Source: a virus (lineage: Duplodnaviria > Heunggongvirae > Uroviricota > Caudoviricetes). From it: a stretch of DNA of 64,000 nucleotides. A model generated the notes under the pieces. That model ran no database searches, had not been told where the DNA came from, and saw nothing but the letters and a program-made list of their open reading frames with translations. The DNA lies in the IMG/VR virus record IMGVR_UViG_3300047548_000621, positions 8,200-72,199 of that record. One strand, written 5' to 3'. Of the stretch, positions 2,301 through 27,350 are shown piece by piece. The position numbers and the translations under genes are program-made. Numbering within the stretch: the first letter of the stretch is position 1; each line of letters begins with the position of its first letter.

Positions 2301-2318
2301 ATTTATGCTAAATACATT

Positions 2319-2990: not shown

Positions 2991-2991
2991 T

Positions 2992-3067
2992 TGGTGGACC
3001 CTGTGGGGTTCGAACCCACGACCTACAGGTTAAAAGCCCGTTGCTCTACCTACTGAGCTAAAGGTCC
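2992..3067 (-). tRNA. tRNA-Lys (UUU)
   Basis: Minus-strand cloverleaf. Anticodon loop CUUUUAA, D-arm AGCUCAGUAGGUAGAGC, T-loop GGUUCGAAC, CCA encoded. Confidence 0.8.
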
Positions 3068-3073
3068 ATTATG

Positions 3074-3150
3074 TGGTGCGCCCGGGAGGATTCGAACCTC
3101 CGACCTTTCGATTATCAGTCGAATGCTCTAGCCAACTGAGCTACGAGCGC
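3074..3150 (-). tRNA. tRNA-Ile (GAU)
   Basis: Anticodon stem UUCGA/UCGAA with loop CUGAUAA. Canonical T-arm and CCA. Confidence 0.8.
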
Positions 3151-3156
3151 ATTAAT

Positions 3157-3234
3157 TGGAGCGACGGGTGTGATTCGAACACACGACTTTATTGCTTTGC
3201 AGGCAATTGCATTGGGCCTCTCTGCCACCGTCGC
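3157..3234 (-). tRNA. tRNA-Cys (GCA)
   Basis: Anticodon stem AUUGC/GCAAU with loop CUGCAAA, T-loop GUUCGAAUC, CCA. The D-arm is slightly long. Confidence 0.7.
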
Positions 3235-3282
3235 ATTAAACTTTATAGATTAGTTATATCAACATTCAGGACGAATGTCAAG

Positions 3283-4812
3283 TTATTTGTTAAGATATTT
3301 CCATAAATTTATGAAATAATTGTCTGCATATTCTGCTGATCTTCTTTTGATTTCTTCGCTTTCATCAACTTTTTTCAAAGAGGTCTTCATCATTTCGTAT
3401 GAATCGTAACCCAATCTTGTTAGACCTGCTGCCTGATATGGGTCTAGCTTTCGGCGGCCCGAATTATATATCTGACTATACTGGTTGCACATAAACTCAA
3501 ACGCTGCTTTCCTGTCCCAAATGTCATTTTTCCAATTGTGGTACAACCCAGATGAACCTAACAATTCATATCCGTATTTTTTTGGATTTTTTAAAATGCT
3601 ACTGTCATCATATTGTCCGGGACCAATTGATAAACACGAAAGGCTTAGCGCATCCATTGGAAAATCTTCATCAGATAACAATTCTATATTCTTCTCTGCT
3701 ATCTCTGGCGTTTCGCCCGGAAGTCCTATAATATATCCTGCGCTTATACCCAAAGCAGTGTCGCTTTCTTCATAGATATCTCTTAGCTTATACAATGTTT
3801 CTATATTTTTTTCAGGGGAGCCGCCCTTGCCTATAGCCTTAGCAGCAGGAGCGTGTAATGATTCTAACCCGAAAAAATAACCGTTAAAATTTAAATCCCT
3901 CAACATATACATCTGTTCAGGTTTAGCTGCTAATAAGTCTAATCTACAGCATCCCATAAATTTCAAATCAATTTTAGACTTGTCTCTAACATAAAGCATA
4001 CGCTCTATGTTATCTGTGCGGTGATTAAAAGTATCGTCAATTATGATGTAGCTAGTTGTTCCAAAATTTTCATAGTTATACAAAACTTCTTCTAGAATAC
4101 AATCTTCGTGTCTCATATACGAAAGGTCGTTTTTATTTTTACCTAAGAGTGGATAGGTACAAAAAGCACATTTAAAAATACACCCTCTCGATACTTCTAT
4201 AGGCAAAGACTCATTGTTTGTTACCCCATCATAGTGTTCCCATATGTGAGTGGAGTGCCTAAAATCAAACATATCACCTTTCATATCATATGATATGTCG
4301 TACATAAAAGTTTTAGGATCGTAATGCGGAGCTCCAACTGTCTTACTATAGATAGGATCTTTGTTTTTCTTGATGCATTCAACAATGTCTAAGATCATTC
4401 CTTCTCCCATACCTCGAACCACGTAATCTACATTAAAATTATGGTGCCGGCCGTGATCAAGCATAACATGGGTATTACCCCCACCGTAGATTATCTTTAT
4501 CTTTGGAAATTTAGTTTTTACGTATTCGTTAATAAGAGAAAATGTATCATCACCATCTTTAAAAGTAGAGACTATGCCCGGCCTACTATCATCCATAAAC
4601 AAAGTACTACTATACCCTAAAAATAAAGTATCAGTGGATATTACCCTATCTAATAAGCGCAACAATTCAGTAGTTGACAAATGGCTCATATGATCAATGA
4701 CCAAAGCCGAATATCCAGATTTGCGCAGTACGTCAGCTATTCTATAAGCACCGAAGGGTTTAAACCTTGTAGTCCAGGTCGCGTCTGATAATATCACTGC
4801 GTTGAATGTCAT
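3283..4812 (-). CDS. B12-binding-domain radical SAM enzyme (class B rSAM-like)
   Basis: 509 aa. N-terminal Rossmann-like cobalamin-binding region, then CIFKCAFCTYP (CxxxCxxC radical SAM motif). Paralog of the adjacent 493-aa ORF. Confidence 0.7.
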   Translation of the reverse strand: MTFNAVILSDATWTTRFKPFGAYRIADVLRKSGYSALVIDHMSHLSTTELLRLLDRVISTDTLFLGYSSTLFMDDSRPGIVSTFKDGDDTFSLINEYVKTKFPKIKIIYGGGNTHVMLDHGRHHNFNVDYVVRGMGEGMILDIVECIKKNKDPIYSKTVGAPHYDPKTFMYDISYDMKGDMFDFRHSTHIWEHYDGVTNNESLPIEVSRGCIFKCAFCTYPLLGKNKNDLSYMRHEDCILEEVLYNYENFGTTSYIIIDDTFNHRTDNIERMLYVRDKSKIDLKFMGCCRLDLLAAKPEQMYMLRDLNFNGYFFGLESLHAPAAKAIGKGGSPEKNIETLYKLRDIYEESDTALGISAGYIIGLPGETPEIAEKNIELLSDEDFPMDALSLSCLSIGPGQYDDSSILKNPKKYGYELLGSSGLYHNWKNDIWDRKAAFEFMCNQYSQIYNSGRRKLDPYQAAGLTRLGYDSYEMMKTSLKKVDESEEIKRRSAEYADNYFINLWKYLNK

Positions 4813-4820
4813 ATCAGTAT

Positions 4821-6302
4821 TTAACTATATAGTTTTTTGATTTTTGAAAAATATTCTTGCTCTATCTTTACTTTTAACTCAGGTATATTAGGCTTTATAG
4901 TTTCGTCAAATGTTTTGAGTGGCATATCAATCAGGTCATCAAATTTTAGACCAAATCTTAAATAGCCGGCTATCGAAAAAGACGGAATCTTCAATTTTCC
5001 AGAATCATACAGAAACAAGTTATAATGATTGGCAATCTCTGCACATTTATGATAGTCCCAAACATCGTTTTCCCAAAAAGGATCGTTTGTTAATCTATAC
5101 CCATATTTTTCAGGATTGGCGTATAAACTACTTTTACCAAATGCACTCTCACTCATCCATAATGGAGACAGTCCCACACAATCTACCGGAGAATCATCTT
5201 CTATTAGACGATTTATCCAGTAATCTACTGTTTCCGGCGTTTCATATGGTAGACCAACGATATACCCTAGCATTAAGTTAACTTTATTGTTGAATGCATT
5301 TTTGAGCTTATGCATTGTTTCAAACAATTCTTCGGCCGGAGCATACTTGCCTATAGCCTTAGCAGTCTTCTCATTTAGTGTTTCAACTCCAAAATAGTGT
5401 CCGTTGAAGTTAAGGTCCTTAAGTAAACTTATTTGCTCTGGCTTCTTTGCAAGCAAATCTAACCTGGTATATCCTACAAAATTTAAATCTAATTTTGTTC
5501 TGTCTCTTGCTCTTAGCAACAATTCTATTTTATCATTGCGTTCATTAAAAGTGTCATCTACGATCATATATGTAGTAGTATTGAACTTTTCATAATTATA
5601 CAAAAGTTCAGAGTACAGGGAATCTTCCAAACGTATATACGAGGTGTCTTGTTTGTGCATTCCTATTAAAGGAAAAGTACAAAATGTACATCGGAAAATA
5701 CAACCTCTTGCAACTTCAAGAGGTAGGCATTCACCCTCTATTATAAAATCTGAATCGTGCCAAAAATGTGTAGAATGCTTATAATCATACAGCTTGCCTC
5801 TGAGGTCATATGAAATAACATAAGCACCATTTACTTTATAATCATAGTAGGGTTCAGTATCATTTGCTAGTGAGTTTACTAAGTCCAACATCATAGATTC
5901 TGCGTAGCCTAATACAACATAATCAGTATACGTTTCTCGTATTTTTACGAGTTGTTCAAGAATTACATTACTATTGCTACCGCCCACTATAATTTTTATA
6001 TTAGGGTATCTATTCTTAATATGTTGATTAATTGCAACGAAATCATCGTCTCCGTTATCAAAGGGAACTTTATGATTTTTTTTACTATGAAACAGGGTGG
6101 TACTGTAACCCAAGAATAAAGTATCATCAGTAATAATGATATCTAATAAAGCAAAAAGCTGGTCTAATGGCAATCTGGATACATAGTCTAATACTTGTAT
6201 TTCATACCCTGCTTTTCGCAGTGTATCAGCAATCGTATATGCGCCTAGAGGTCTAATTCTTTCATCAAATACTGCATCAGTGAGTATAACGCCGTGGATC
6301 AT
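4821..6302 (-). CDS. B12-binding-domain radical SAM enzyme, tandem paralog
   Basis: 493 aa with CIFRCTFCTFP motif. Collinear similarity to 3283-4812, including LFLGYS(S/T)TLF, GYI(I/V)GLP(G/Y)ETPE and NP(K/E)KYGY. Confidence 0.7.
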   Translation of the reverse strand: MIHGVILTDAVFDERIRPLGAYTIADTLRKAGYEIQVLDYVSRLPLDQLFALLDIIITDDTLFLGYSTTLFHSKKNHKVPFDNGDDDFVAINQHIKNRYPNIKIIVGGSNSNVILEQLVKIRETYTDYVVLGYAESMMLDLVNSLANDTEPYYDYKVNGAYVISYDLRGKLYDYKHSTHFWHDSDFIIEGECLPLEVARGCIFRCTFCTFPLIGMHKQDTSYIRLEDSLYSELLYNYEKFNTTTYMIVDDTFNERNDKIELLLRARDRTKLDLNFVGYTRLDLLAKKPEQISLLKDLNFNGHYFGVETLNEKTAKAIGKYAPAEELFETMHKLKNAFNNKVNLMLGYIVGLPYETPETVDYWINRLIEDDSPVDCVGLSPLWMSESAFGKSSLYANPEKYGYRLTNDPFWENDVWDYHKCAEIANHYNLFLYDSGKLKIPSFSIAGYLRFGLKFDDLIDMPLKTFDETIKPNIPELKVKIEQEYFSKIKKLYS

Positions 6303-7899: not shown

Positions 7900-8180
7900 T
7901 GGTATGAGCGGCGGGACTCGAACCCGCACGTCCAAAGGACACAAGATTTTCTTACCACTATAGCTTTCGCTACCCATTAGTTTGTGGTCTGGACTATCCC
8001 TTCATCATATCATGACTGACTTAGATGCCTGCCGTCTAGTCTCTACACCTTCCCTTTCGGGCTTGGCTCGGGATCAGCATTTTACAGCCTTCCCCGAATT
8101 TGACAGGTTCTACTCTAGAGATTTCCCTCTAGGCACTCAAATTAATAAGTCTCGGGCGTCTACCATTCCGCCACGCTCAC
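7900..8180 (-). tRNA. tRNA-Leu (UAA) interrupted by a group I intron (exon 1 at 8147-8180, exon 2 at 7900-7950)
   Basis: The two exons join to an 85-nt class II tRNA. Acceptor GUGAGCG/CGCUCAU, D-arm UGGCGGAAUGGUAGACGC, anticodon stem CGAGA/UCUUG with loop CU-U|AAAA, variable arm, T-arm GCGGGUUCGAGUCCCGC, CCA. The split falls between U34 and A35. Confidence 0.75.
7951..8146 (-). ncRNA. Group I intron (tRNA-Leu UAA type, 196 nt, no ORF)
   Basis: Follows a U at the 5' splice site and ends with G before the 3' exon. Carries recognisable group I conserved elements: P-like AAAUUCGGGGAA, Q-like AUCCCGAGCC, R-like GUAGAGACUAGACGG, S-like AAGGGAUAGUCC. Confidence 0.65.
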
Positions 8181-8884: not shown

Positions 8885-8959
8885 TGGTAGCGCCGAGGAA
8901 TTCTGCCATCCTGACCTTTCGGGTGTAAACCGAATGCTCTACTTCTGAGCTACGGCGCC
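8885..8959 (-). tRNA. tRNA-Val (UAC)-like with non-canonical T-loop (GGCAGAA) and D-loop lacking GG; possible pseudogene
   Basis: Acceptor GGCGCCG/CGGCGCU, anticodon stem UUCGG/CCGAA with loop UUUACAC, CCA. The T-stem has a 53-61 mismatch and the T-loop has no TΨC. Confidence 0.45.
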
Positions 8960-8971
8960 ATTATTAAAATA

Positions 8972-9049
8972 TGGTCGGGGTAGCAGGATTCGAACCTGCG
9001 ACCTCCTGCTCCCAAAGCAGGCCGTCTAACCAGACTGACGTACACCCCG
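8972..9049 (-). tRNA. tRNA-Pro (UGG)
   Basis: Anticodon stem CCUGC/GCAGG with loop UUUGGGA, T-arm GCAGGUUCGAAUCCUGC, CCA. Confidence 0.8.
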
Positions 9050-9056
9050 ATATTCT

Positions 9057-9131
9057 TGGTGGAGACGGAGGGAATCGAACCCTCAAGTGCGCCTTGCAAA
9101 GGCGCCAGTTTCCCGTTAGCTTACGTCCCCG
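9057..9131 (-). tRNA. tRNA-Ala (UGC)
   Basis: Anticodon stem GCGCC/GGCGC with loop UUUGCAA, T-loop GGUUCGAUUCC, CCA. Confidence 0.7.
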
Positions 9132-9150
9132 TTGAACTATTTATATACTC

Positions 9151-9179
9151 ACTATAACATAGGCAAATTCCTATGTCAA
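9151..9179 (-). promoter_or_regulatory. Sigma70 / T4-early-like promoter (minus strand)
   Basis: Minus strand reads TTGACA, 17 nt, TATAGT. A TATATAAATA (late-promoter-like) sequence sits immediately downstream. Confidence 0.45.
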
Positions 9180-9188
9180 GAAAAAACT

Positions 9189-9266
9189 TGGTGCGCCCGG
9201 CAGGATTCGAACCTGCAACTTGAAGCTTAGAAGGCTCCTGCTCTATCCAGTTGAACTACGAGCGCG
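9189..9266 (-). tRNA. tRNA-Arg (UCU)
   Basis: Anticodon stem GGAGC/GCUUC with loop CUUCUAA, T-arm GCAGGUUCGAAUCCUGC, CCA. Confidence 0.75.
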
Positions 9267-9320
9267 TTATTCTTACTTATACGATAGATTGAAACGAGTG
9301 TCAACCTCTTTTTTCAAGAA

Positions 9321-9396
9321 TGGTGCTCTAGGAGAGAATCGAACTCCCTGTCTCCGGGTTACAAATCCGGCGCATCGCCAGCAATGCTTCTAGAGC
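9321..9396 (-). tRNA. tRNA-Thr (UGU)
   Basis: Acceptor GCUCUAG/CUAGAGC. Anticodon loop UUUGUAA with an A31-C39 mismatch. T-loop GUUCGAUUC, CCA. Confidence 0.65.
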
Positions 9397-9931
9397 GTAA
9401 TATTTTGTTTCTTTGCTTGTATATAGCAGCGTTAGAGACACCTAGCATATTTTCTAGTTCTCCGATTCTGTGCTTGTCAAGCAATGCAATCAAGTCAATA
9501 CTATCCCAATCTACCTTTCGGCTGTTACGCTGGGCACAAGTATGACTGCAAAACTGTTGTGCAACAGGCTTTTGGGCATCGCAGATTGGACAAGCATCAT
9601 ACTCTGACACTTTCTTGAAGTCAGCAAATGCTTCATTAAAACCTTCATACGTTTCCGGAAGTTCTAAGGCTCCTGCGTGAATCTCACTGTGGCAGTTGTG
9701 ACAAACCAAAATACACTTTCTAAGTTCAGTTACGACCTTAGACCATGATTTTGGATTCGCTCTAGTACCACCGAATCCAATGTCTTTTTGACTAGGATCA
9801 ATATGATGAAATGCCAGCGCAGCAGTATGCTTATCATACCCACAGCATTGACATTTCCCGCCCATTGCTTCTACCATCTTATTTTTGGTATTTTCTCTCC
9901 AGCGTTTTACTTTTTCTGATCCATAGCTCAT
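9359..9931 (-). CDS. HNH homing endonuclease
   Basis: 190 aa with HHIDP...CHNCH HNH/zinc motifs. The last ~12 codons overlap the 5' part of tRNA-Thr. Confidence 0.6.
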   Translation of the reverse strand: MSYGSEKVKRWRENTKNKMVEAMGGKCQCCGYDKHTAALAFHHIDPSQKDIGFGGTRANPKSWSKVVTELRKCILVCHNCHSEIHAGALELPETYEGFNEAFADFKKVSEYDACPICDAQKPVAQQFCSHTCAQRNSRKVDWDSIDLIALLDKHRIGELENMLGVSNAAIYKQRNKILRSRSIAGDAPDL

Positions 9932-9991
9932 AATATAACCTCTAACCTGTAATTCTATTTATCATAAAGTTGCAGGTTAGAGGTTTTAATT

Positions 9992-10067
9992 GGCTCCGAC
10001 ACCAGGACTCGAACCTGGAAAAACGCTGATTAACAGTCAGCTGGGTCTACCATTCCCCCATGTCGGA
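9992..10067 (-). tRNA. tRNA-Asn (GUU)
   Basis: Anticodon stem GCUGA/UCAGC with loop CUGUUAA, T-arm CCAGGUUCGAGUCCUGG, CCA. Confidence 0.8.
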
Positions 10068-10093
10068 ATGAACTCTATAAACTATTTAACTTG

Positions 10094-10122
10094 ACTATAG
10101 CAGCCTGACAAATAAATGTCAA
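10094..10122 (-). promoter_or_regulatory. Sigma70 / T4-early-like promoter (minus strand)
   Basis: Minus strand reads TTGACA, 17 nt, TATAGT, just upstream of tRNA-Asn. Confidence 0.45.
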
Positions 10123-10685
10123 GCTGCTATTTTCAAGATCCTACTGTGCTTGGGAACACCTGAAATCAAGTAATCCATCTGATCCGCAAGAATGTTGCGG
10201 TTCTGTAGAATCAAGCTTTCATAGTGGTTCGGCTCGTAGGGAATGTAACGCAATTCCATACCACTTTGCTTTAATGTCTTGCAACCCTTCTTTTGGTTAC
10301 AGTCAAAGCAAGATGTTACGACATTAGTCCATTCGTCCAAACCGCCCAAGAACCTCGGGACAATGTGGTCACGACTCAAATCATACTTACTTGCGAAATG
10401 ATTTCCACAGTAAGCACAGATATGTCTGTCACGAGCAAACAATGTAGGGTTCGTAAGAACTACTTTGTTGTGCTTTTTGAAATCGAAACCGTTACCCCTA
10501 ATAGCAATAATGCTAGGAGTTTCTAGATAGCTACGAGTACCATCGTTCTTGTAACCACCGTTGTATCTAGCAATTACATCACCTAGACTCCAAGCTACCA
10601 GATTTTTTGCGTGATACGAAATTGCTTCGTCGTGGGAGACCCACGTTCTGGGGACACCCGATATGTCTAAGGCTAGAACTGCCAT
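10119..10685 (-). CDS. HNH homing endonuclease
   Basis: 188 aa with the motif YCGN...DHIVP...CFDCNQKKG. Confidence 0.6.
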   Translation of the reverse strand: MAVLALDISGVPRTWVSHDEAISYHAKNLVAWSLGDVIARYNGGYKNDGTRSYLETPSIIAIRGNGFDFKKHNKVVLTNPTLFARDRHICAYCGNHFASKYDLSRDHIVPRFLGGLDEWTNVVTSCFDCNQKKGCKTLKQSGMELRYIPYEPNHYESLILQNRNILADQMDYLISGVPKHSRILKIAA

Positions 10686-10789
10686 AATAAACTCCTGTTA
10701 TTCTTTCTATATTTACTAATCTACAAAGTGACTTCCCTATTGTCTGTTCACTGTACATTTGTTTGACCGAATTGTCAACCAAAATCTTT

Positions 10790-10875
10790 TGGTGCACGGA
10801 AGAGGATTCGAACCTCTACACCATTTCTGATAGTACCCCCTCAAGATACCGCGTCTGCCGTTTCGCCACCCGTGC
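10790..10875 (-). tRNA. tRNA-Leu (GAG), class II
   Basis: Anticodon stem GUAUC/GGUAC with loop UUGAGGG. Long variable arm, T-arm AGAGGUUCGAAUCCUCU, CCA. Confidence 0.65.
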
Positions 10876-11521
10876 GTGAATCCCACTCTTGTATGTCTTT
10901 CATAAGCTCATCAATAGTACAGCTATTTTTCCAAGTCTTTTTGGCGTTAGCTGAATGTAAGACGAACTCGCAATTAGCAGGATGTGATATAATCTTAGGA
11001 TCAATATTGTTAGTAAATCCGTAATGCACTGATATACGATGATCACGGACTACCCCAGTAGGATTAATCTTTTTATGATACATACCGTGTTCTTGTAGAA
11101 GACAGTACCCTTTAACTTTTTCTATACAGGATGATAAGTGGAATGAGCAATCTTCCTTATACATCACCTTGCAAAGTGCTTGCTCATCAGTTATCTTTCT
11201 TTTACCTGTCATGTTCGTGGCCCAAGAACGGATGCTTTCATGAGTATCTTTAGTGAGACCTTTTGCCCAAGCCATCCTCTGTTTAGAATCTTCGGACAAT
11301 GTTGCATAGCGTTCCTTAGCACTTACTCGTTTACCGCTCTCATAAGCGTTCTTTGTGTTAGCACTATTTCTTGCTCTAACAGCAGGGCATTTGTTAGGAA
11401 CAATCTCGCACGAAAGTTTGCCACTTGAGGTAGAGTAGTGTGCAATATTGCCACACCCATAACTACATAACTCATCAGTGGTGATCTTTATTCCTGATTT
11501 AATAGGCATTTGTTTCTCCAT
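10841..11521 (-). CDS. Putative HNH-family or zinc-finger homing endonuclease
   Basis: 226 aa. Cys-rich N-terminus, C-terminal DHRISVHYGF...H motif. The 3' end overlaps tRNA-Leu(GAG). Confidence 0.4.
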   Translation of the reverse strand: MEKQMPIKSGIKITTDELCSYGCGNIAHYSTSSGKLSCEIVPNKCPAVRARNSANTKNAYESGKRVSAKERYATLSEDSKQRMAWAKGLTKDTHESIRSWATNMTGKRKITDEQALCKVMYKEDCSFHLSSCIEKVKGYCLLQEHGMYHKKINPTGVVRDHRISVHYGFTNNIDPKIISHPANCEFVLHSANAKKTWKNSCTIDELMKDIQEWDSRTGGETADAVS

Positions 11522-11569
11522 TGGTATACACGCAAGTATTTATCTTTTGCATACCAATCGGTATTAATT

Positions 11570-11660
11570 TGGTACTCCTGCTCGGATTCGAACCGAGACC
11601 GACCCCTAATCTGGGCTCCGGGATATAAATCCGGCCACTCTACCATTAAGCTACAGGAGT
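11570..11660 (-). tRNA. Class II-like tRNA, anticodon uncertain (best parse loop UUUAUAU with A31-C39 mismatch, possibly Ile-UAU)
   Basis: Perfect 7-bp acceptor ACUCCUG/CAGGAGU, T-arm CUCGGUUCGAAUCCGAG, CCA, and a variable arm of about 20 nt. The anticodon arm is irregular. Confidence 0.4.
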
Positions 11661-11673
11661 ATGAAACTTGCTT

Positions 11674-11747
11674 GGTGCCTCGTGAGGGATTTGAACCCCC
11701 GGCCTTTGCTTTACGAAAGCACTGCACTACCACTGTGCTAACGAGGC
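11674..11747 (-). tRNA. tRNA with uncertain anticodon (best parse CGU, Thr)
   Basis: Acceptor GCCUCGU/ACGAGGC, T-arm GGGGGUUCAAAUCCCUC, CCA. Anticodon stem GUGCU/AGCAA with a 27-43 mismatch and loop UUCGUAA. Confidence 0.4.
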
Positions 11748-12086
11748 TCAGAATGAGTTGTTATTTTTATGCCACTGACCATAAACACAATGTAAAAACT
11801 CGTGCCCTACATATTCCGGTTCATATCTAACTGATGGGTCAATCATATGAATTGTGCAAGTGTCAAACGGATATTTCAACACAGTAAATGCAGCAGTTTT
11901 GCCAGGGAGCTTTTTTTCAGCTACAACCTTACTAAACTCTTGTTCTGTTTTATAAGTTACGATGTTAACTTTCACCGTTTGTCGTTCATACTGTTTTTTA
12001 CCAAACGTATATCCGTCCTTACCTGGAGTAGGACCTTGATTACAACTTACCAATAATAGCAATAATGTTGCACATAATTTTTTCAT
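11748..12086 (-). CDS. Small lipoprotein with HExxH zinc-metallopeptidase motif
   Basis: Signal peptide plus lipobox (LLLLLVSC) and HEFLH near the C-terminus. Confidence 0.45.
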   Translation of the reverse strand: MKKLCATLLLLLVSCNQGPTPGKDGYTFGKKQYERQTVKVNIVTYKTEQEFSKVVAEKKLPGKTAAFTVLKYPFDTCTIHMIDPSVRYEPEYVGHEFLHCVYGQWHKNNNSF

Positions 12087-12294
12087 AGAGAATCTCCCTA
12101 TGATATTTAGTAAATTATAGTGGGCCCGTCACCACAACATAGACGGCATTATGCGGAATTTATCAGCGCCTCCGCTTGTGGATAGCTTGCTATCCTTTGG
12201 GTAAGTTATTGCAGATTACTTTCAGGTTAGCCTTCGCACCGTCTCCAATGTATGCCTACACGGGATTTCATCTTACTAACACCCACTATAAACT

Positions 12295-12378
12295 TGGTGC
12301 CCCGAGAGGGACTTGAACCCCCACGCCTTTCAGCAAAAGATTTTGAGTCTTCCGTGGCTACCATTACACCATCGGGGC
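12295..12378 (-). tRNA. tRNA-Leu (CAA), class II
   Basis: Anticodon stem GAAGA/UCUUU with loop CUCAAAA. Long variable arm, T-arm GGGGGUUCAAGUCCCUC, CCA. Confidence 0.7.
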
Positions 12379-12497
12379 AAGAAACTAGGCCCGGGATATT
12401 TATACTGCATACGGGCGGCGCAGTATCGGTTCAGCCTAGCGCATAGCTTATTGTGCCTTGAGAACACTCCGGTGCACCGCGTTTCTCTTCCGATATT

Positions 12498-12581
12498 TGG
12501 TGCGGGTAGAGGGACTTGAACCCCCACGCGATTAAGCAACAGATTCTAAGTCTGCCGTGGCTACCATTACACCATACCCGC
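12498..12581 (-). tRNA. tRNA-Leu (UAG), class II
   Basis: Anticodon stem GCAGA/UCUGU with loop CUUAGAA, long variable arm, CCA. Close paralog of the Leu(CAA) gene. Confidence 0.7.
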
Positions 12582-12732
12582 ATTTAAAATTATTTACTCG
12601 CCGTGACTCGTATCTCAAATAAAGTCACCGATAGTTCTTTCAACTACTGCTACGGCCTTCGGGTACACTCTCGCTCGGATTGAGCATAGAGCAAGGTCAC
12701 ATACGGCATACCGTACACACACGAGTAAAATT

Positions 12733-12808
12733 TGGTGCCGCCTCGAGGTTTCGATCCCCGTTCTTCGGTGCTTCAAACCGACGCTATCACCAGATCAGCT
12801 AAAGCGGC
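12733..12808 (-). tRNA. tRNA-Phe (GAA)
   Basis: Anticodon stem UCGGU/ACCGA with loop UUGAAGC, T-loop AUCGAAA, CCA. Confidence 0.65.
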
Positions 12809-13360
12809 ATTTAAGTCATTATATTGTTCTTTCTCTATAATGAGAATCTTCTTGTCAGGATGCTGTTCTATTACTGCATCCATCTTAGCTCTATCATTGC
12901 CCCACCATCTGCCCTTTATCTCAACATAAAGATCAAAAGCAGGAAGATAGAAATCAGGAGTGTAGTTCTTTGTTATTCCATCTAGAACATACTTCCAAGA
13001 CTTGCATCTTTCCCAAGCAATGTTATTATCGTTACAGTATAAAGCAAAAGTCCTTTCCCAGGTACCTTGCACTTTCTTACCGCTCACTTCAAACCATTTA
13101 CTCTTGCCACCTGGATTATGCTGTGACATTCGTTCGGACAATCGTTTACGAGCATCCTCGCCCATTACAGTAGGACCGTATTCAGCAATGCGAAGTTTTG
13201 TAGCTTCAGATTTAGTCCTAGTAATTAGGTCGCCGCGATTTTTGGCATTGACCAATGAGTTAAAAGCGAGTCCGTGCTTCTGTTGCAGGCCTCTAAAGCT
13301 CAACCCAGCGTCATAATCTTTCTGTATTTCAGCCCAATCGTAATGTTTCTTGTGTGGCAT
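12773..13360 (-). CDS. PD-(D/E)XK-family nuclease with N-terminal helix-turn-helix (putative homing endonuclease)
   Basis: 195 aa. The motif PDFYLP...DLYVEIKG fits PD...(D/E)xK. The 3' end overlaps tRNA-Phe and the start codon abuts a tRNA 5'-half remnant. Confidence 0.5.
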   Translation of the reverse strand: MPHKKHYDWAEIQKDYDAGLSFRGLQQKHGLAFNSLVNAKNRGDLITRTKSEATKLRIAEYGPTVMGEDARKRLSERMSQHNPGGKSKWFEVSGKKVQGTWERTFALYCNDNNIAWERCKSWKYVLDGITKNYTPDFYLPAFDLYVEIKGRWWGNDRAKMDAVIEQHPDKKILIIEKEQYNDLNAALADLVIASV

Positions 13361-13385
13361 TTGTGTTCTCCGTGATACTATTTAT

Positions 13386-13436
13386 CCCAGATACACAATC
13401 AACTGCTCTACCAACTGAGCTACAGAGGCAAAAACT
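13386..13436 (-). pseudogene. tRNA 5'-half remnant (acceptor plus D-arm only)
   Basis: GCCUCUGUAGCUCAGUUGGUAGAGCAG is a canonical acceptor and D-arm. No matching 3' half (CAGAGGC-N-CCA) is found nearby. Confidence 0.4.
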
Positions 13437-13588
13437 ATTGACTGGCTGCGTCACACCTACGCGATTTAACAGGATAGACTGTCCTGACCAATCTTTAGTT
13501 TAGTAAAATAACAATGTCAAAGAATAGAAAGCATCGCTCTCTATAGTCTTGTTATAGCAAACAATGATAGTGTTGTCAACTATTATTT

Positions 13589-13667
13589 TGGTCACGCCGA
13601 CGAGATTCGAACTCGCATTCTCCGACTTGAAAGGACGAACTCTTATGCCAATTAGAGGACGGCGTGA
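13589..13667 (-). tRNA. tRNA-Glu (UUC)-like, second copy, degenerate
   Basis: Acceptor CACGCCG/CGGCGUG, T-arm GCGAGUUCGAAUCUCGU, CCA. Anticodon loop CUUUCAA with one U-U mismatch in the stem. The D-loop is 12 nt. Confidence 0.4.
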
Positions 13668-13672
13668 TATCT

Positions 13673-13756
13673 TGGTGGGCCGGTGTGGACTTGAACCACG
13701 CCCCGAAGGATGAGTTTTACAGACTCACTGCTAAATCCAATTAGCTTTACCGTCCC
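13673..13756 (-). tRNA. tRNA-Tyr (GUA), class II, second copy
   Basis: Anticodon stem UGAGU/ACUCA with loop CUGUAAA, long variable arm, T-loop GGUUCAAGUCC, CCA. The acceptor has one A-G mismatch. Confidence 0.55.
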
Positions 13757-13763
13757 ATTAACT

Positions 13764-13948
13764 TGGTGAGGGCGACCAGATTCGAACTGGCAGAAGTCGT
13801 TACCAAAGCATTACCAGTGGCTGCCATCAGGTTCAAAGACTGCCGCGAGTCTACAAAAAATACCCCTAGGCACTTGCGAACAAACTCGGGTGTTACCCCA
13901 ATCGTTCCTTACTTTAACGATGCGTATACCTATTTCCGCTACGCCCTC
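13764..13948 (-). ncRNA. tRNA-like RNA with a ~105-nt insertion between the anticodon-stem halves
   Basis: 5' part has acceptor GAGGGCG, D-arm GCGGAAAUAGGUAUACGC and stem UCGUU. 3' part has AACGA, a 5-nt variable loop, T-arm GCCAGUUCGAAUCUGGU, acceptor CGCCCUC, A, CCA. The two parts are separated by about 105 nt that contains a second AACGA. Confidence 0.4.
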
Positions 13949-13957
13949 ATATAATCT

Positions 13958-14033
13958 TGGTGGAGCCTACGGGGATCAAACCCGTGACCTTTTGTCTGCC
14001 AGACAAATGCTCTCTCATCTGAGCTAAAGCCCC
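13958..14033 (-). tRNA. Atypical tRNA-like (Cys-GCA-like anticodon loop UGGCAGA, D-loop without GG, T-loop UUUGAUC)
   Basis: Acceptor GGGGCUU/AGGCUCC with CCA. Anticodon stem UUGUC/GACAA has G at position 33. D and T loops are non-canonical. Confidence 0.35.
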
Positions 14034-14041
14034 AATATCGG

Positions 14042-14124
14042 AGGAGTGTGATGGCATCGAACCATGTACCTTTCGGTACCTACTGATTTCGAATCAGTGC
14101 GGGGAGCCAACCCCAGCACACTCC
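14042..14124 (-). tRNA. tRNA-Ser (CGA), class II
   Basis: Acceptor GGAGUGU/ACACUCC, anticodon stem ACUGA/UCAGU with loop UUCGAAA, variable-arm hairpin GGUACCGAAAGGUAC. The 3' end reads UCC rather than CCA. Confidence 0.6.
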
Positions 14125-14198
14125 AATCTCGCGGGGGAGTTGCACTGTCCCCCTTCCCTCAATCTGCTATTGTGCAACGCAGTAATGAGGAGTATTTC

Positions 14199-14274
14199 TG
14201 GTCGGGAAGACAGGGATCGAACCTGCGACCTCGGCGTCCCGAACGCCGCGCTCTACCACCTGAGCTACTTCCCG
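14199..14274 (-). tRNA. tRNA-Pro (CGG)
   Basis: Anticodon stem CGGCG/CGCCG with loop UUCGGGA, T-arm GCAGGUUCGAUCCCUGU, CCA. Confidence 0.7.
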
Positions 14275-14410
14275 TTGTTATTCTTTAATCTATCAAAAGC
14301 ACGTTTCATCCGCGCTCTTGCTTCTTCTGCTTCTTTTCCTTTGAGGACTCTTACGCCCTCAAAAACACGGTTGCTCGTGTAGTTGCTAAAGTCAGGTAAA
14401 TCAGACTTCA
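14264..14410 (-). CDS. Small ORF (about 48 aa, MKSDLPDFSNYTSNRVFEGVRVLKGKEAEEARARMKRAFDRLKNNNGK)
   Basis: ATG preceded by AAAGGAAAUCAUU. The stop lies inside the tRNA-Pro(CGG) 5' end. The 124-aa ORF in the track looks like an over-extension across two tRNAs. Confidence 0.3.
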
Positions 14411-14427
14411 TAATGATTTCCTTTAAA

Positions 14428-14506
14428 TGGTCGGGATAGCAGGACTCGAACCTGCGACCTCTTGTCCCCCAGACAAGCGCGCTAAACCAGGCTGCGCCAT
14501 ACCCCG
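14428..14506 (-). tRNA. tRNA-Pro (GGG)
   Basis: Acceptor CGGGGUA/UAUCCCG, anticodon stem CUUGU/ACAAG with loop CUGGGGG, T-arm GCAGGUUCGAGUCCUGC, CCA. Confidence 0.7.
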
Positions 14507-14585
14507 TTGAATTGGCCGCCCCCTTTATTTTCCGTCCCCTTGCACTGAATAAACAGTAAAGCACAAGGTGAGAGGGCGATAAGAT

Positions 14586-14681
14586 TGGTGGACTGTGAAG
14601 GATTCGAACCTTCGAGTGGCCGTCGCCAATGAGTACCATACTTAATGGGAATCGAACCCAATCCTCTTCCAGGAACAGTCC
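14586..14681 (-). ncRNA. tRNA-like element of unknown fold (7-bp acceptor plus CCA, two T-arm-like hairpins)
   Basis: Ends GAAGGUUCGAAUCCUUC-ACAGUCC-A-CCA with a matching 5' GGACUGU 96 nt upstream. The interior holds a second UGGGUUCGAUUCCCA hairpin and no recognisable anticodon arm. Confidence 0.3.
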
Positions 14682-14687
14682 AATTAG

Positions 14688-14777
14688 TGGCGGAGTCGGT
14701 GAGATTCGAACTCACGGTACCCTTACGAGTACAACACCTTTCCAGGGTGTCACAATCGGCCACTCTGTCACGACTCC
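14688..14777 (-). tRNA. tRNA-Ser (GGA), class II
   Basis: Acceptor GGAGUCG/CGACUCC, anticodon stem ACACC/GGUGU with loop CUGGAAA, long variable arm, CCA. Confidence 0.7.
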
Positions 14778-14925
14778 AGTATTTGGCGCGACCACTTATT
14801 TTCTATGCCGACTACTACTTTCGGAAGGTAGCTCTTGCATGTGGCCGCATAAGAATGGAAAAGCGGTGACGTTTTTTCGTCACTATTATAGTGGTATCAC
14901 TCGCCGCCATAAACTTGGTGCGCGA

Positions 14926-14990
14926 TGCAGGAGTTGAACCTGCCGCCTCTTCCATGTCAAGGAAGCGTTCTACCGATGAACTAATCGCGC
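14926..14990 (-). tRNA. tRNA-Val (GAC)
   Basis: Acceptor GCGCGAU/AUCGCGC, anticodon stem CUUCC/GGAAG with loop UUGACAU, T-arm GCAGGUUCAACUCCUGC, CCA. Confidence 0.75.
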
Positions 14991-14997
14991 ATTGAAT

Positions 14998-15072
14998 TGG
15001 CTGACTAAGTAGGACTCGAACCTACATATCCTTCATTAACAGTGAAGTTCATTACCATTATGATATTAGCCA
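14998..15072 (-). tRNA. tRNA-Asn (GUU), second, AT-rich copy
   Basis: Anticodon stem CUUCA/UGAAG with loop CUGUUAA, T-arm GUAGGUUCGAGUCCUAC, CCA. The acceptor starts with U. Confidence 0.6.
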
Positions 15073-15130
15073 ATGAAACTGTGTGCGTTTTTAAAAAGGG
15101 ACGCACGGCCCGAGCAGCCGAAGCTGTAAC

Positions 15131-15208
15131 TGGGGTGGGTGAAGGGATTCGAACCCTCGACATTCGGCACCACAAGCCGACGCTCTAACCAACTGAGCTA
15201 CACTCACC
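15131..15208 (-). tRNA. tRNA-His (GUG) with G-1
   Basis: Anticodon stem UCGGC/GCCGA with loop UUGUGGU. Extra 5' G opposite discriminator C73, which is the bacterial His identity feature. CCA. Confidence 0.7.
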
Positions 15209-15214
15209 ATGAAT

Positions 15215-15290
15215 TGGAGGACCCGCCCGGGCTCGAACCGGGGACCTAGAGATTAAAAGTCTCCCACTCTACCTACTGAGTTACGGGTCC
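15215..15290 (-). tRNA. tRNA-Lys (UUU), second copy
   Basis: Acceptor GGACCCG/CGGGUCC, anticodon loop CUUUUAA, T-arm CCCGGUUCGAGCCCGGG, CCA. Confidence 0.7.
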
Positions 15291-15340
15291 GTAAAACTCT
15301 CAGCTTCGGCTGTAGACCGAACTTAATCGGTCTTAAAAAC

Positions 15341-15417
15341 TGGTGCAACCAGAAGGATTCGAACCTTCAACCTTCGGTTTCGTAGACCGATGCTCTATCC
15401 AGTTGAGCCATGGCTGC
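15341..15417 (-). tRNA. tRNA-Arg (ACG)
   Basis: Anticodon stem UCGGU/ACCGA with loop CUACGAA, T-arm GAAGGUUCGAAUCCUUC, CCA. Confidence 0.75.
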
Positions 15418-15428
15418 GTGAAATTGTT

Positions 15429-16085
15429 TTATAATGATTGTAGTCTATCTATAATAGAATTACGTTCTTCAATTGTGTTTTCTTTTAGGTCTAGAGGATA
15501 GAAAAACGCCATCGGAAGTTCAAATGCCGGCACTGACTCTAGTCCACCCTTAATTGTTTGGTTGTGATAAGTTTTAGCATTTAAACTAAAAACACTCTTG
15601 TTTTCAGCTTCATATTGCTCTATCAAGACAGGTGTACTTGAAGGGAAACTTTCATTGGGATCAGATACCTCACCCGGAACTTCATAAAAATTAATTAAAC
15701 TGTTGTTTGCGCCATCAAGCAAAAAAGTTAATGTGTAGTCAGAAGTGGTTGGGTGCAGATGTTTGTGTATATTTAAAGTAACGTTATTCAACCCAAATAA
15801 CATAGGCAAAAAGTTATATTTCTTACATAATTCAGAAATATTGGTCCTGTTAATTACTTCACTATAAAGTAATTGATCTATATCTCTCACTTCATCCGCA
15901 AGAGCATTGAAACTCATATAAGTTTGTGTACCAGTAACCGTCTGATATAATCCAGATGCCCAGCAATACGAATTCTGTACTGAAGGATCTAACTCATAGA
16001 CCAGAGAGAAGGCTTCTAGAGTGGAAGTGACAATTTCATTGTACACTGAATCTGACAGAATTACGGGAACATAATTTTTTGACAC
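15429..16085 (-). CDS. Hypothetical protein
   Basis: 218-aa ORF inside the tRNA array. No recognisable motif. Confidence 0.4.
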   Translation of the reverse strand: MSKNYVPVILSDSVYNEIVTSTLEAFSLVYELDPSVQNSYCWASGLYQTVTGTQTYMSFNALADEVRDIDQLLYSEVINRTNISELCKKYNFLPMLFGLNNVTLNIHKHLHPTTSDYTLTFLLDGANNSLINFYEVPGEVSDPNESFPSSTPVLIEQYEAENKSVFSLNAKTYHNQTIKGGLESVPAFELPMAFFYPLDLKENTIEERNSIIDRLQSL

Positions 16086-16138
16086 CAGGAAACTTTTCCT
16101 TTTTTGTTATTTAGTCCCGAAATTATTCGTAATTAATA

Positions 16139-16215
16139 TGGTAGACCCTGAGAGATTCGAACTCCCGACCTTCTGTTTCGAAGACAGACATTCTATCCAG
16201 CTGAACTAAGGGTCC
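16139..16215 (-). tRNA. tRNA-Arg (UCG)
   Basis: Anticodon stem UCUGU/ACAGA with loop CUUCGAA, T-arm GGGAGUUCGAAUCUCUC, CCA. Confidence 0.75.
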
Positions 16216-16226
16216 AAAATATTATA

Positions 16227-16300
16227 TGGTGCTCCCAGGAGGTACCGCCCCTCCGGCTCATCATTACCAATGATGTGTATTGCTTTTATACTATGGGAGC
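16227..16300 (-). tRNA. Atypical tRNA-Thr (GGU)-like with non-canonical T-loop (GGCGGUA) and D-loop (AAAAGCA)
   Basis: Perfect acceptor GCUCCCA/UGGGAGC with CCA. Anticodon stem CAUCA/UGAUG with loop UUGGUAA. T-stem GGAGG/CCUCC is perfect but the loop has no TΨC, and the D-loop has no GG. Confidence 0.4.
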
Positions 16301-20438: not shown

Positions 20439-21506
20439 TTAAAATGCAAGTGCGCTGTAATCGTACAGTACCTTTTCCTTGACACGAGTAAGAATGAGCC
20501 TTGCACCCTTGCTTTCAAAGATAAACATTCCCTTCTGTGAATCCAAATTGATAAGATTTTCGGGAGTGAACTTAAACTCCTTCCATTCAGCCTCATCATT
20601 GTTAGGGTCAGTATCATATTCGATATTAACACCAGACACAGCAAGCGGGTTGCCTCGCCATTCACAGTATTCCAAACGCTCACTAGGAATTTCAGCACCA
20701 CAATCAATGAGAGTGATATCGTACCTAGCACCACTGTCATATTCAGGCTTTGCGTTAAGCATTTCAAGTGCCTCACTCGGGCTTTCGTTATATCGGTTCA
20801 TTTCTTCAATAAGAGCCTTAAGCATATCAAAGTTGAACTCACCAAACAAACTCGTAAGACCACAAATTTGGTCAATATACTGCTTGTTATTAAGACGATC
20901 CTCACAATATTCACGAATGAAGGTTACATCAAGTCCCTTAAAATCAAGCAGGTAGAACAGTCGACCGGGGCGATTACGCATATGCTCATTGACACGCCAC
21001 TTGTCATTCACGGTGAGGATGTAAAGCTTCTTACTACCGAATACACCATCAAGCAGTGTGAGGATTTCCTCCTGCTTGTCGCGGTCGTATACCTTCTCAA
21101 ACTCATCAAAAAGAATGACGCACGGCTGATCAATATCCTGCAATAGCTTGAAGAAGCCATCACCAGTCCAATCACGATTGATCACGATAGTAGGGACGCC
21201 TTGCTTTGCAAGTTCGATAGAGATATTCTTAGCAAGCAGCGTCTTGCCACTACCCTTTTCACCGTTCAACAGAACACCCGTCTGCTGGGGACGGTCCCAA
21301 AACGAATTGATAATCCGATCAGTGTGACGGAGAGTATTACCGTACAACTTTGACGGAATTTCAAAGTTTTCAATCTGATCAAGATAGAAATTACCAAAAG
21401 GATCTACCGCAACGGTATAGTTGCCTGCAGGAAGTTGCTCGTGTAGATTCATTGCTTCCTTGCTGGAAACACGAAAAGTAGTACCACTCTTAAGAAAGTA
21501 TGCCAT
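20439..21506 (-). CDS. AAA+ ATPase
   Basis: 355 aa. Walker A GEKGSGKTLLAKNI, Walker B ILFDEFEKV. Confidence 0.6.
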   Translation of the reverse strand: MAYFLKSGTTFRVSSKEAMNLHEQLPAGNYTVAVDPFGNFYLDQIENFEIPSKLYGNTLRHTDRIINSFWDRPQQTGVLLNGEKGSGKTLLAKNISIELAKQGVPTIVINRDWTGDGFFKLLQDIDQPCVILFDEFEKVYDRDKQEEILTLLDGVFGSKKLYILTVNDKWRVNEHMRNRPGRLFYLLDFKGLDVTFIREYCEDRLNNKQYIDQICGLTSLFGEFNFDMLKALIEEMNRYNESPSEALEMLNAKPEYDSGARYDITLIDCGAEIPSERLEYCEWRGNPLAVSGVNIEYDTDPNNDEAEWKEFKFTPENLINLDSQKGMFIFESKGARLILTRVKEKVLYDYSALAF

Positions 21507-21884: not shown

Positions 21885-23258
21885 TCACTTGTTAGCGTTT
21901 GCCCGAACTTCGTCAAAAGTCATATCACGAACAAGAACACCATTTTCAAAAACTGCTTCAAGCATATCCGTAGCAAAAATGTATTCACGGTCATCGCTAC
22001 GAACAGTATGGTACGTTCCATCAACAAACTTGATCAGCTTGAGCTTACCCTTCTTGCTCTGCTTGCCCTTGTCAGTGATCGGGTCCTTGAAAACATCAAC
22101 CCACTTACCATCAACAAGTGCCGCGCTGCACTTCATAGCGAAGCGGAAATCATCTCTATTCACAGTCTGAAGTAACATTCCGCCCTGACCGAAAGCCACA
22201 TTGTCAGCACTGTAACCAGCAAGCGTGATCGTGTAGAGAATGCTACGAATAGTCTGGTGATTGATGCCGTCACCCTGCAAGACACGGACATTGTTCAATA
22301 CCTTGTAGCCCTTGTCATTAACAGTGTGACCAAAGTTCTTGTCAAGAATCTTGAGGCACTTGCAGACAACATCAGCTGGATCTCCCGAGTCAGGACGAAC
22401 AACAAGAGTAGCACCACTATCAAGAACATCCTGCTTAAGTTCGGTACCCCACATTTCGCAAGCAGCGAAAATGTCATAGCTGTCCGAAACACAAGCAAAG
22501 ATACCACCTGGCTTTGCGTTCTGTTTGATCATATTGCGATAGCTGTCAACCTCGTGTTCACGCCCCCAGCTGGTTACAGTGCTGTGTTCCATTGCAGGAA
22601 CGCTAAACCCAGCCATGTCAGCATTGTAATAACGACGGGCAAAAAGCAGAGCCTCAACGGTGTCGGTCCCTTGAAAATTAACCAAGTGCGCGGCACCACC
22701 AATTCCTGCACTTTCCAAACTGCTAACCCCACGAGCACCGAAATCGTGAAGTTTAAAATCAATAGTAGTAGGATCACCAGTTTTCTCCAGATATTCAAGA
22801 ATCAATTTCTTGTTTTCATAGCTGTTAGTAGCAACAGTAGTAGGATACCAAATTGCACGAAGCAGCGCCGTTTCGAGGAACGAAGTCAGCCAGTAACAGT
22901 TAGGATCAGTGTTTTCAATCGTAACGAGAACATTACCAGTAGGAATGACAAGACCCTCAGGTGCTGCTTTAATGCGAACAGGAAGATATCCGTTATGTTC
23001 TAGAAGAATGTAAATCCAGCCTTCTCGATTAAAAGGTTCGCCGTGTGCTGTAATGATAGCTTCCGCTTCTTGGATCATTTCAAGCGTAATCGGGGTAAGC
23101 AAATATTCCTTAATAAAGGCCTGAAGTCCGAAGAAAACAGTAGCATCGTGTTTGCCACCGCGGCTTTCAATGTAGCTGTAGATACCAGTTGTGTTGGGAG
23201 GGTATTGATTGAACTGCGAATACTTATAGCTATCCGCGTTAAGAATAATGTTGTGCAT
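21885..23258 (-). CDS. nadV: Nicotinamide phosphoribosyltransferase (NAMPT)
   Basis: 457 aa. N-terminal NIILNADSYKYSQFNQYPPNTTGIYSYIESRGG is characteristic of NAMPT/NadV. Length fits. Confidence 0.85.
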   Translation of the reverse strand: MHNIILNADSYKYSQFNQYPPNTTGIYSYIESRGGKHDATVFFGLQAFIKEYLLTPITLEMIQEAEAIITAHGEPFNREGWIYILLEHNGYLPVRIKAAPEGLVIPTGNVLVTIENTDPNCYWLTSFLETALLRAIWYPTTVATNSYENKKLILEYLEKTGDPTTIDFKLHDFGARGVSSLESAGIGGAAHLVNFQGTDTVEALLFARRYYNADMAGFSVPAMEHSTVTSWGREHEVDSYRNMIKQNAKPGGIFACVSDSYDIFAACEMWGTELKQDVLDSGATLVVRPDSGDPADVVCKCLKILDKNFGHTVNDKGYKVLNNVRVLQGDGINHQTIRSILYTITLAGYSADNVAFGQGGMLLQTVNRDDFRFAMKCSAALVDGKWVDVFKDPITDKGKQSKKGKLKLIKFVDGTYHTVRSDDREYIFATDMLEAVFENGVLVRDMTFDEVRANANK

Positions 23259-27275: not shown

Positions 27276-27350
27276 TGGCGCGCTCGGTGGGATTCGAACC
27301 CACTGTCTCGGGCTTTAGAGACCCTTGCAATACCATTTAGCCTCGGGCGC
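27276..27350 (-). tRNA. tRNA-like gene, candidate amber suppressor (CUA), anticodon arm ambiguous
   Basis: Acceptor GCGCCCG/CGAGCGC (one C-A mismatch), D-loop with GG, T-arm GUGGGUUCGAAUCCCAC, G73, CCA. Standard numbering gives stem AGGGU/GCCCG (27-43 mismatch) and loop CUCUAAA. The alternative is a perfect 5-bp stem GUCUC/GAGAC with an 8-nt loop. Confidence 0.4.

Follow-up and report, generated by a model that had tools for sequence, protein, structure and literature searches.

The 64,000-nucleotide stretch of Caudoviricetes DNA analysed here (the whole of it is called the window; IMG/VR record IMGVR_UViG_3300047548_000621, positions 8,200 to 72,199) carries an array of about 38 tRNA genes between positions 2,992 and 17,196, every one of them on the minus strand and with an encoded CCA. 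Three of these genes, tRNA-Val(UAC), tRNA-Ala(GGC) and tRNA-Thr(GGU), depart from the consensus nucleotides of the tRNA elbow, G18 G19 in the D-loop and U54 U55 C56...A58 in the T-loop: Val and Thr have A18, G54, G55 and G58, and Ala has A19 and U56. An earlier note, made from the letters of this DNA, had singled out the same three genes, and our reading of the sequence agreed with it on their positions, on the letters of their loops and on the integrity of their 7-bp acceptor stems, anticodon stems and encoded CCA. The note counted three deviants; these three stand, and it overlooked a fourth, tRNA-Phe(GAA), whose T-loop is identical in a relative of the window phage (L312; L numbers denote fetched viral loci). 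The D-loop GG is found in the other ~35 tRNAs of the window, and so is the T-loop UUC, with the exception of tRNA-Phe (AUC). An endonuclease-I-like open reading frame (ORF) at 12773-13360 overlaps the 5' end of tRNA-Phe. Coordinates are collected in Table 1.

Table 1. Deviant tRNA genes of the window and the endonuclease gene next to one of them.
Feature	Start	End	Strand	Description	Source
tRNA-Val(UAC)	8885	8959	-	variant elbow; A73; encoded CCA	sequence read, Rfam
tRNA-Phe(GAA)	12733	12808	-	T-loop AUCGAAA (A54, A58, A60); normal GG D-loop	
tRNA-Ala(GGC)	13958	14033	-	G3:U70; A19-U56 swap	ARAGORN, sequence read
tRNA-Thr(GGU)	16227	16300	-	variant elbow; 4-nt variable loop; encoded CCA	sequence read, Rfam
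HNH endonuclease ORF	16332	16928	-	directly upstream of variant tRNA-Thr(GGU)	Pfam HNH

D-loop positions of Val and Thr were numbered by alignment with canonical D-loops of 7 nt, such as AAUGGUA, from elsewhere in the array. The D-loop of Val, AGAAGUA, then reads A18 G19, and its T-arm, AGGAU-GGCAGAA-UUCCU, reads G54 G55 C56 A57 G58 A59 A60 with a U53.U61 mismatch. For Thr, which has G1-C72 and C2-G71, the D-loop AAAAGCA gives A18 G19 and the T-arm GGAGG-GGCGGUA-CCUCC gives G54 G55 C56 G57 G58 U59 A60. In both genes G19-C56 was retained, G18/U55 was replaced by A18/G55 and U54/A58 by G54/G58. In Ala (D-loop AGAUGAGA, G18 A19; T-loop UUUGAUC, U54 U55 U56), G18, U54 and U55 were retained and only G19-C56 was changed, to the Watson-Crick pair A19-U56. 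An outer pair, G19-C56 or A19-U56, is present in all three. The claim that both partners of the G18-Psi55 and G19-C56 contacts (Psi, pseudouridine) had been lost was therefore too strong, since Val and Thr hold G19-C56 and Ala holds G18/U55. Judged from the sequences, the elbow is rewired through covarying alternatives, and not lost. The description of the second gene as Cys-like with G33 also had to be revised: its anticodon loop, CUGGCAG, reads C32 U33 G34 G35 C36 A37 G38 and, with the G3:U70 pair, makes it a tRNA-Ala(GGC). An antiparallel mini-helix made of G18-C56 and Y19-G55 was considered as well and was dropped, because the alignment of the 7-nt D-loops revealed an invariant G19-C56.

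Val and Thr belong to what we call the A18.G55 class (A18 G19 together with N54 G55 C56, positions 54/58 being G/G, A/U or U/A), and Ala belongs to the A19-U56 class (G18 A19 together with U54 U55 U56). Since G18, U54 and U55 are replaced in Val and Thr, U54 methylation, Psi55 and Gm18 are impossible there. Scores with the Rfam tRNA model (RF00005) were 48.9 bits for Val, 59.8 for Ala and 48.5 for Thr, which is above the gathering score of 29 and, Tyr excepted, the lowest in the array. ARAGORN missed Val and Thr at default settings, and the variant Thr gene escaped it in all loci where this was checked; lowered ARAGORN thresholds and our own cloverleaf threading were used to recover missed tRNAs. 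The minimum-energy fold was a cloverleaf for Val and Thr; in the predicted fold of Ala the D arm was missing, the anticodon stem was extended, and the acceptor and T arms were retained.

When IMG/VR was scanned for patterns of the Thr and Val designs, the matches included real tRNAs with the same loops on different, compensated stems. With the Thr T-arm fixed and the D-loop left free, every real match had AG in the D-loop and never GG; with the D-arm fixed and the T-loop left free, the T-loop always read N-G-C and never U-U-C. Scans open to any anticodon, followed by cloverleaf threading, gave 334 distinct A18/G55 tRNAs from about 300 viral loci, with 37 anticodons for 18 amino acids. The Thr(GGU) variant family numbered 37 distinct viral sequences, in which G1-C72, C2-G71, A18, G19, G55 and C56 were invariant. 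When 36 of its sequences were aligned, 94.7% of the pair cells were paired, as compared to 70.2% after shuffling and at most 49% with slid partners, and 18 of the 23 pairs had changed on both sides. Compensatory changes were present in all four stems of the variant families. The U53.U61 mismatch of Val turned out to be a conserved feature of the GGCAGAA subfamily. Loop lengths were canonical (7-8 nt for the D-loop, 7 nt for the T-loop), and positions 18, 19, 55 and 56 were conserved and covarying. The proposal of the earlier note that the joint loop change reflects functional selection, and not random decay, is thus borne out by variant loops that are kept across unrelated viral contigs on compensated stems.

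A set free of the bias of these scans was made of 984 distinct class-I tRNAs from the fetched viral loci, none of them matched by any of the scan patterns. For the 328 that have 7-nt D-loops, positions 18/55 were G/U in 245 cases and A/G in 72, with at most nine discordant tRNAs (Fisher test, p = 6e-67), and positions 19/56 were G/C in 312, A/U in eight and G/U in two (p = 2e-14). Over all 984 tRNAs, positions 54/58 were U/A in 810, A/U in 72, G/G in 57, A/A in 22 and C/A in 14. The 18/55 and 54/58 states combine freely: U54-G55-C56...A58 is common, and A54-U55-C56...U58 also occurs. In all 23 distinct tRNAs with U56, the GG of the D-loop was replaced by GA. Each of the three tertiary pairs of the elbow occurs in alternative states, and discordant combinations are very rare.

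The share of G55-type tRNAs per array had a median of 20%, most arrays being mixed. A few arrays were completely or almost completely of the G55 type (19 of 19 tRNAs in L271, 11 of 11 in L055 and nine of ten in L212), which argues for directional pressure. Inspection of the T-loops in L271 (positions 1086-4205), L055, L212 and L053, where nearly all class-I tRNAs are A18/G55, revealed that U54..A58, G54..G58, A54..U58 and C54..A58 types are mixed within the same array.

The Thr family was also searched for in 185,579 species-representative genomes of cellular organisms. Ten matches were found, of which three threaded as tRNAs, all three in metagenome-assembled genomes. Two of them lay on short contigs (2.9 and 3.4 kb) that have phage-like tRNA arrays and were identical in sequence to viral loci, and the third lay on a 27.9-kb contig of an Alphaproteobacteria metagenome-assembled genome. 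The near-absence of the Thr family from cellular genomes indicates that it is essentially phage-borne. A cultured phage with variant tRNAs is Pseudomonas phage 16Q (OR001909; L302; record positions 20706-21256), which has an A18/G55 tRNA-Ile (D-loop and T-loop AAAAGUA/AGCGUUA) and an A18/G55 tRNA-Pro (AAUAGUA/AGCGUAA), together with A19/U56-type tRNAs (Ala, Cys), all of them annotated as ordinary tRNAs. No A18/G55 tRNA was present among the T5 tRNAs that could be threaded, and no variant-elbow tRNA in Synechococcus phage S-PM2. A blastn search of cultured phages with a variant Thr found nothing, and with Val as the query the matches were merely 5' halves of ordinary tRNAs. Canonical tRNAs accounted for the blastn matches in S-PM2 and Bacillus phages. 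A full-text literature search, which left most subscription journals uncovered, returned no earlier description of the elbow class, so that an earlier report is possible.

To see how the window came by its variant genes, the array was compared with those of 22 close relatives, located through the S-adenosylmethionine (AdoMet)-decarboxylase-like ORF that adjoins Val (72-88% amino-acid identity). The relatives reach sizes of up to 333-361 kb, which makes the window phage a jumbo phage; a megablast search of cultured phages with 9.5 kb of the window array found no relative. In the window and the 22 relatives alike, the genes of the array run Gln-Gln-Thr(GGU)-Arg-...-Ala(GGC)-Glu-Phe-...-Pro-Val(UAC)-[ORF]-Trp-Leu(UAA)... 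Where the fetched loci reach, the same slots hold canonical genes: 22 of 22 relatives have Val(UAC), nine have Ala(GGC) and four have Thr(GGU), and Thr(AGU) occupies the Thr(GGU) slot in L310. As to whether the odd loops are conserved in related phages, the answer is therefore divided, the close relatives being canonical and the loops being conserved in widely distributed families.

The Val gene of the window shared 72-75% identity with the variant Val genes in L041, L024 and L187, which are unrelated contigs, against 51-56% with the resident canonical orthologs, and its flanks (tRNA-Pro upstream, the intergenic segment and the start of the ORF downstream) could still be aligned with those of the close relatives. 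Similarly, Thr was 80-88% identical to members of the variant family, versus 57% to its canonical counterpart in the relatives' slot. Being closer to the variant families than to the resident orthologs, both genes are foreign replacements. Ala and the canonical ortholog in L324 were 92% identical, the differences being confined to G19A, C56U, a compensatory change at 28/42, and positions 16 and 57. In this alignment the Ala elbow is the product of a coupled G19A and C56U double substitution made in place, and an independent A19/U56 Ala(GGC) exists in L140.

The HNH endonuclease ORF of Table 1 lies at a place where, in most close relatives, Gln(UUG) adjoins Thr(GGU) without room for an ORF. Among all the loci fetched, the best homolog of this ORF (L016, positions 4952-5554, 51% amino-acid identity over the full length) lies in an unrelated array and, again, immediately upstream of a variant Thr(GGU). 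This shared placement suggests that the ORF and the variant Thr(GGU) are a probable mobile two-gene cassette. Variant-elbow alleles were also found in other slots of the close relatives, at Trp in L307 (9283-9356), Glu in L326 (13351-13424) and Ile in L327 (7437-7510), and the corresponding window genes are canonical. Turnover is therefore ongoing.

Several features bear on what the variant tRNAs do. Their discriminator bases are those of canonical tRNAs with the same anticodon, G3:U70 is present in all Ala tRNAs, and G1-C72/C2-G71 in 52 of 55 variant Thr tRNAs; the window Val has A73. Anticodon loops are normal throughout the class (U33 and a purine at 37), and the encoded CCA is kept across the 37 anticodons. 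In the window array, Val, Ala and Thr are each the sole gene for their anticodon, which indicates ordinary decoding and not a role as decoy or primer. On these grounds the variants are most likely working translational tRNAs, neither decoys nor pseudogenes. The outer face of the 19-56 pair is a stacking surface for the ribosome, RNase P and T-box leaders, and it agrees with this that the variants keep a planar outer pair, G19-C56 or A19-U56.

The explanation that we favour, with moderate confidence, is that these genes encode functional elongator tRNAs with an elbow held by alternative tertiary pairs, possibly in escape from factors that read T-Psi-C. In Val and Thr, A18.G55 would replace G18.U55 and G54.G58, with A60, would replace U54.A58, G19-C56 staying in place; in Ala, the outer pair itself would become the Watson-Crick pair A19-U56. 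Val and Thr are foreign alleles that came from widespread phage-borne families and displaced the resident canonical genes, Thr together with the HNH gene. Such rewiring does away with G18 and with UUC (T-Psi-C), the recognition motif of tRNA that varies least, and would make the tRNA refractory to factors that read this motif, most plausibly T-loop-cleaving tRNases of defence or competition systems. A rewired tRNA would, moreover, no longer depend on the host's modification enzymes for U54, U55 and G18. Nucleases with the corresponding specificity have been described: CbCash, a prokaryotic Schlafen nuclease, cleaves the T-loop at UUC, and a single mutation of U54 or U55 abolishes cleavage (PMC13462974), and CdiA-CT(E479) cuts the T-loop between T and Psi (PMC9086364). 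Whether phage tRNAs are targets of CbCash was left open by its authors in 2026 (PMC13462974).

Other explanations have to be weighed. The earlier note had read the genes as non-translational molecules (decoys for nucleases, or primers) or as agents of unusual decoding. Such molecules could do without consensus loops and could escape default ARAGORN, as Val and Thr do, and Staphylococcus is said to have a cell-wall tRNA-Gly that is non-translational and devoid of GG and T-Psi-C. This reading nevertheless appears very improbable, in view of 37 anticodons spread over 18 amino acids, the identity elements, normal anticodon loops and encoded CCA that are kept, and genes that sit in canonical isoacceptor slots as the only ones for their anticodons. 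The variant class is not confined to one specificity, the window variants have no canonical isoacceptor in the array that would make them redundant, and a molecule meant to distract a T-loop nuclease would be expected to retain the target motif, not to lose it. Decaying pseudogenes would account for the low Rfam scores and for the U53.U61 mismatch of Val. We find this scarcely credible: the loops are conserved and the stems covary over dozens of contigs, the mismatch is itself conserved in its subfamily, both partners of a pair change together with rare discordance, and Ala acquired its double change in place. Decay is contradicted by this covariation, and neither uncompensated, lineage-specific damage nor a degenerate elbow of the mitochondrial type was seen in the class.

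Selection could also act on the DNA. Homing endonucleases would cut the DNA of the T-stem-loop, changes at 54, 55 or 56 would give immunity, and the alleles would spread by gene conversion, sometimes with an endonuclease gene, the changes in the D-loop and at 58 being repair at the RNA level. T4 SegB, encoded in a tRNA cluster, recognises the T-stem-loop sequence GGTTCRANTCC and causes the tRNA region in which it lies to be inherited preferentially (PMC2330249). This sequence is disrupted by each of the three kinds of T-loop change observed, several HNH or endonuclease-like ORFs lie in the window array, an HNH gene absent from the relatives abuts the variant Thr, as its homolog does in L016, a GIY-YIG ORF adjoins the variant Thr of L002, and Val and Thr were replaced precisely inside conserved flanks. 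A DNA-level route probably explains the movement of the Thr allele. As a general account of the class we consider it fairly unlikely. Of 139 ORFs beside G55-type tRNAs, HNH and GIY-YIG fell outside the top 25 families (at most four members each), whereas 139 ORFs beside canonical tRNAs included HNH families with 10, 5 and 4 members, a comparison that is confounded by phage lineage. Adjacency to any ORF was slightly higher for the variants (41% versus 32%), but without HNH or GIY-YIG enrichment in Pfam, rather the reverse. The variant Val and Ala of the window have no abutting endonuclease gene. Neutral compensatory drift, in which the elbow pairs of short-lived, relaxed phage tRNAs flip and are inherited or exchanged without advantage, seems quite unlikely to us. 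It would agree with the prevalence of mixed arrays, with the slot-by-slot polymorphism among close relatives at Trp, Glu and Ile, and with the coexistence of several 54/58 solutions. It does not agree with uniformly G55-type arrays of 11-19 diverged tRNAs, with the great rarity of discordant intermediates, or with the near-absence of the Thr family from cellular genomes despite their huge number of tRNA genes.

The selective driver is one that we infer, and our best guess is escape from readers of the universal T-loop, either T-loop tRNases acting on RNA or homing endonucleases acting on DNA. Reading at the RNA level is favoured, because whole arrays are converted at position 55 and there is no general HNH or GIY-YIG enrichment beside the variants. 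Several points weigh against our explanation. Only 3-4 of the ~38 tRNAs of the window are variant, so that broad T-loop cleavage by the host would leave most of the phage tRNAs vulnerable, and we know of no T-loop nuclease for the host of the window phage. That the G55-type tRNAs function, and that A18.G55 and G54.G58 adopt the proposed geometries, we infer from sequence, for the geometries solely from covariation. The scan of cellular genomes covered only the Thr(GGU) family with R54-type T-loops. More tentatively, a second elbow design restricted to phages (A18.G55 with G54.G58 or A54.U58, or else A19-U56) may have evolved as a counter-defence. If so, such tRNAs would be invisible to T-loop tRNases of the Schlafen/Cash type and independent of elbow modification by the host, and some phages would be fully converted. 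This would extend the arms race over tRNAs to a new front, and would provide natural tRNA scaffolds that the host machinery overlooks at the elbow.

Comparison with known tRNAs helps to place the variants. They share with canonical elongator tRNAs (RF00005) the cloverleaf with stems of 7, 4, 5 and 5 bp, U8, A14, A21, U33, a purine at 37, the encoded CCA, the identity elements and an Rfam score above gathering, as well as G53-C61 in the window Thr and Ala, and differ from them in the replacement of G18, U54, U55 and A58 (Val, Thr) or of G19 and C56 (Ala). The closest parallel to the window Ala is tRNA-Ile1(GAU) of T5, which also has A19-U56 (D-loop AGCGAUCUA, T-loop UUUAAAU), although it serves another amino acid in another lineage; its GenBank record annotates amber-suppressor activity after a change of anticodon. 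Positions 54 and 58 are normally paired in trans Watson-Crick/Hoogsteen fashion, and a purine-purine combination, as in the present variants, is known from eukaryotic initiator tRNA and from tRNA-Ala of insects and mammals, which have A54.A58, a type stated to be absent from bacteria and archaea (PMC7566577, PMC7912444). The A54.A58 tRNAs keep Psi55 and G18, whereas in the phage variants 54/58 is G/G or A/U and 18/55 is swapped too. The window tRNA-Phe has the same T-loop letters as these eukaryotic tRNAs. Its AUCGAAA, A60 included, matches the T-loop of the eukaryotic initiator in its letters.

Evasion of nucleases by phage tRNAs has a precedent at the other end of the molecule, where mutations of the anticodon loop allow phage tRNAs to evade anticodon nucleases, with experimental support (PMC10264068); for such evasion, Azam et al. 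2024 are cited in PMC13462974. As in our proposal, function is kept and the feature recognised by the nuclease is gone. The change discussed here differs in that it lies in the elbow and is compensated in a second loop, and in that evasion is proposed only. tRNA-Pyl and animal mitochondrial tRNAs are likewise functional without consensus D-loop and T-loop motifs (PMC7609411), but they have shrunken or variable loops and another core, whereas in the present variants the loops are of normal size and the substitutions are specific, conserved and pairwise covarying.

The strong conservation of G18, G19, T54, Psi55, C56 and A58 is stressed by reviews (PMC7912444). Hundreds of phage tRNAs replace these near-universal elbow nucleotides in a paired fashion, in some arrays completely, and thereby make up natural 'double-mutant cycles' that would tell which elbow geometries work. 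They are a gene class that default tRNA finders overlook, and they offer a testable answer to whether phage tRNAs escape T-loop-cleaving defence nucleases. Cultured phage 16Q, which carries such tRNAs, is a ready experimental system.

Other features of the window array were noted as well. tRNA-Leu(UAA) (7900-8180, minus strand) is split by a group I intron at about 7951-8146 (Rfam RF00028, 65.7 bits, 7970-8157), and the same slot is uninterrupted in close relatives. The intron lies between U34 and A35, presumably the position of the tRNA-Leu intron of cyanobacteria and plastids. A 91-nt tRNA with anticodon UAU (11570-11660, minus strand) has a long variable arm like that of class II tRNAs, which is unusual for Ile, and is kept in the same slot in all relatives examined. 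At 14586-14681 (minus strand) lies a 96-nt tRNA-like sequence with a good acceptor stem, a T-arm (UUCGAAU) and an ACCA tail around a disrupted middle; ARAGORN modelled a 23-nt intron in it, and Rfam did not report it. Two tandem ORFs of 509 and 493 amino acids (3283-6302, minus strand), with B12-binding and radical SAM domains, lie inside the array and have a possible RNA-modifying role.

Outside the main array, a tRNA with the anticodon CUA, of the amber suppressor type, is present at 27276-27350 (minus strand; Rfam 50 bits), and CUA tRNAs are also present in several related viral loci. Further along, the window encodes a full-length TonB-dependent receptor (28964-31297, minus strand), with a Plug domain and a beta-barrel, and near it are the salvage pair for nicotinamide adenine dinucleotide (NAD), NAMPT (21885-23258) and NMNAT-NUDIX (24131-25180), and genes for a class Ia ribonucleotide reductase.

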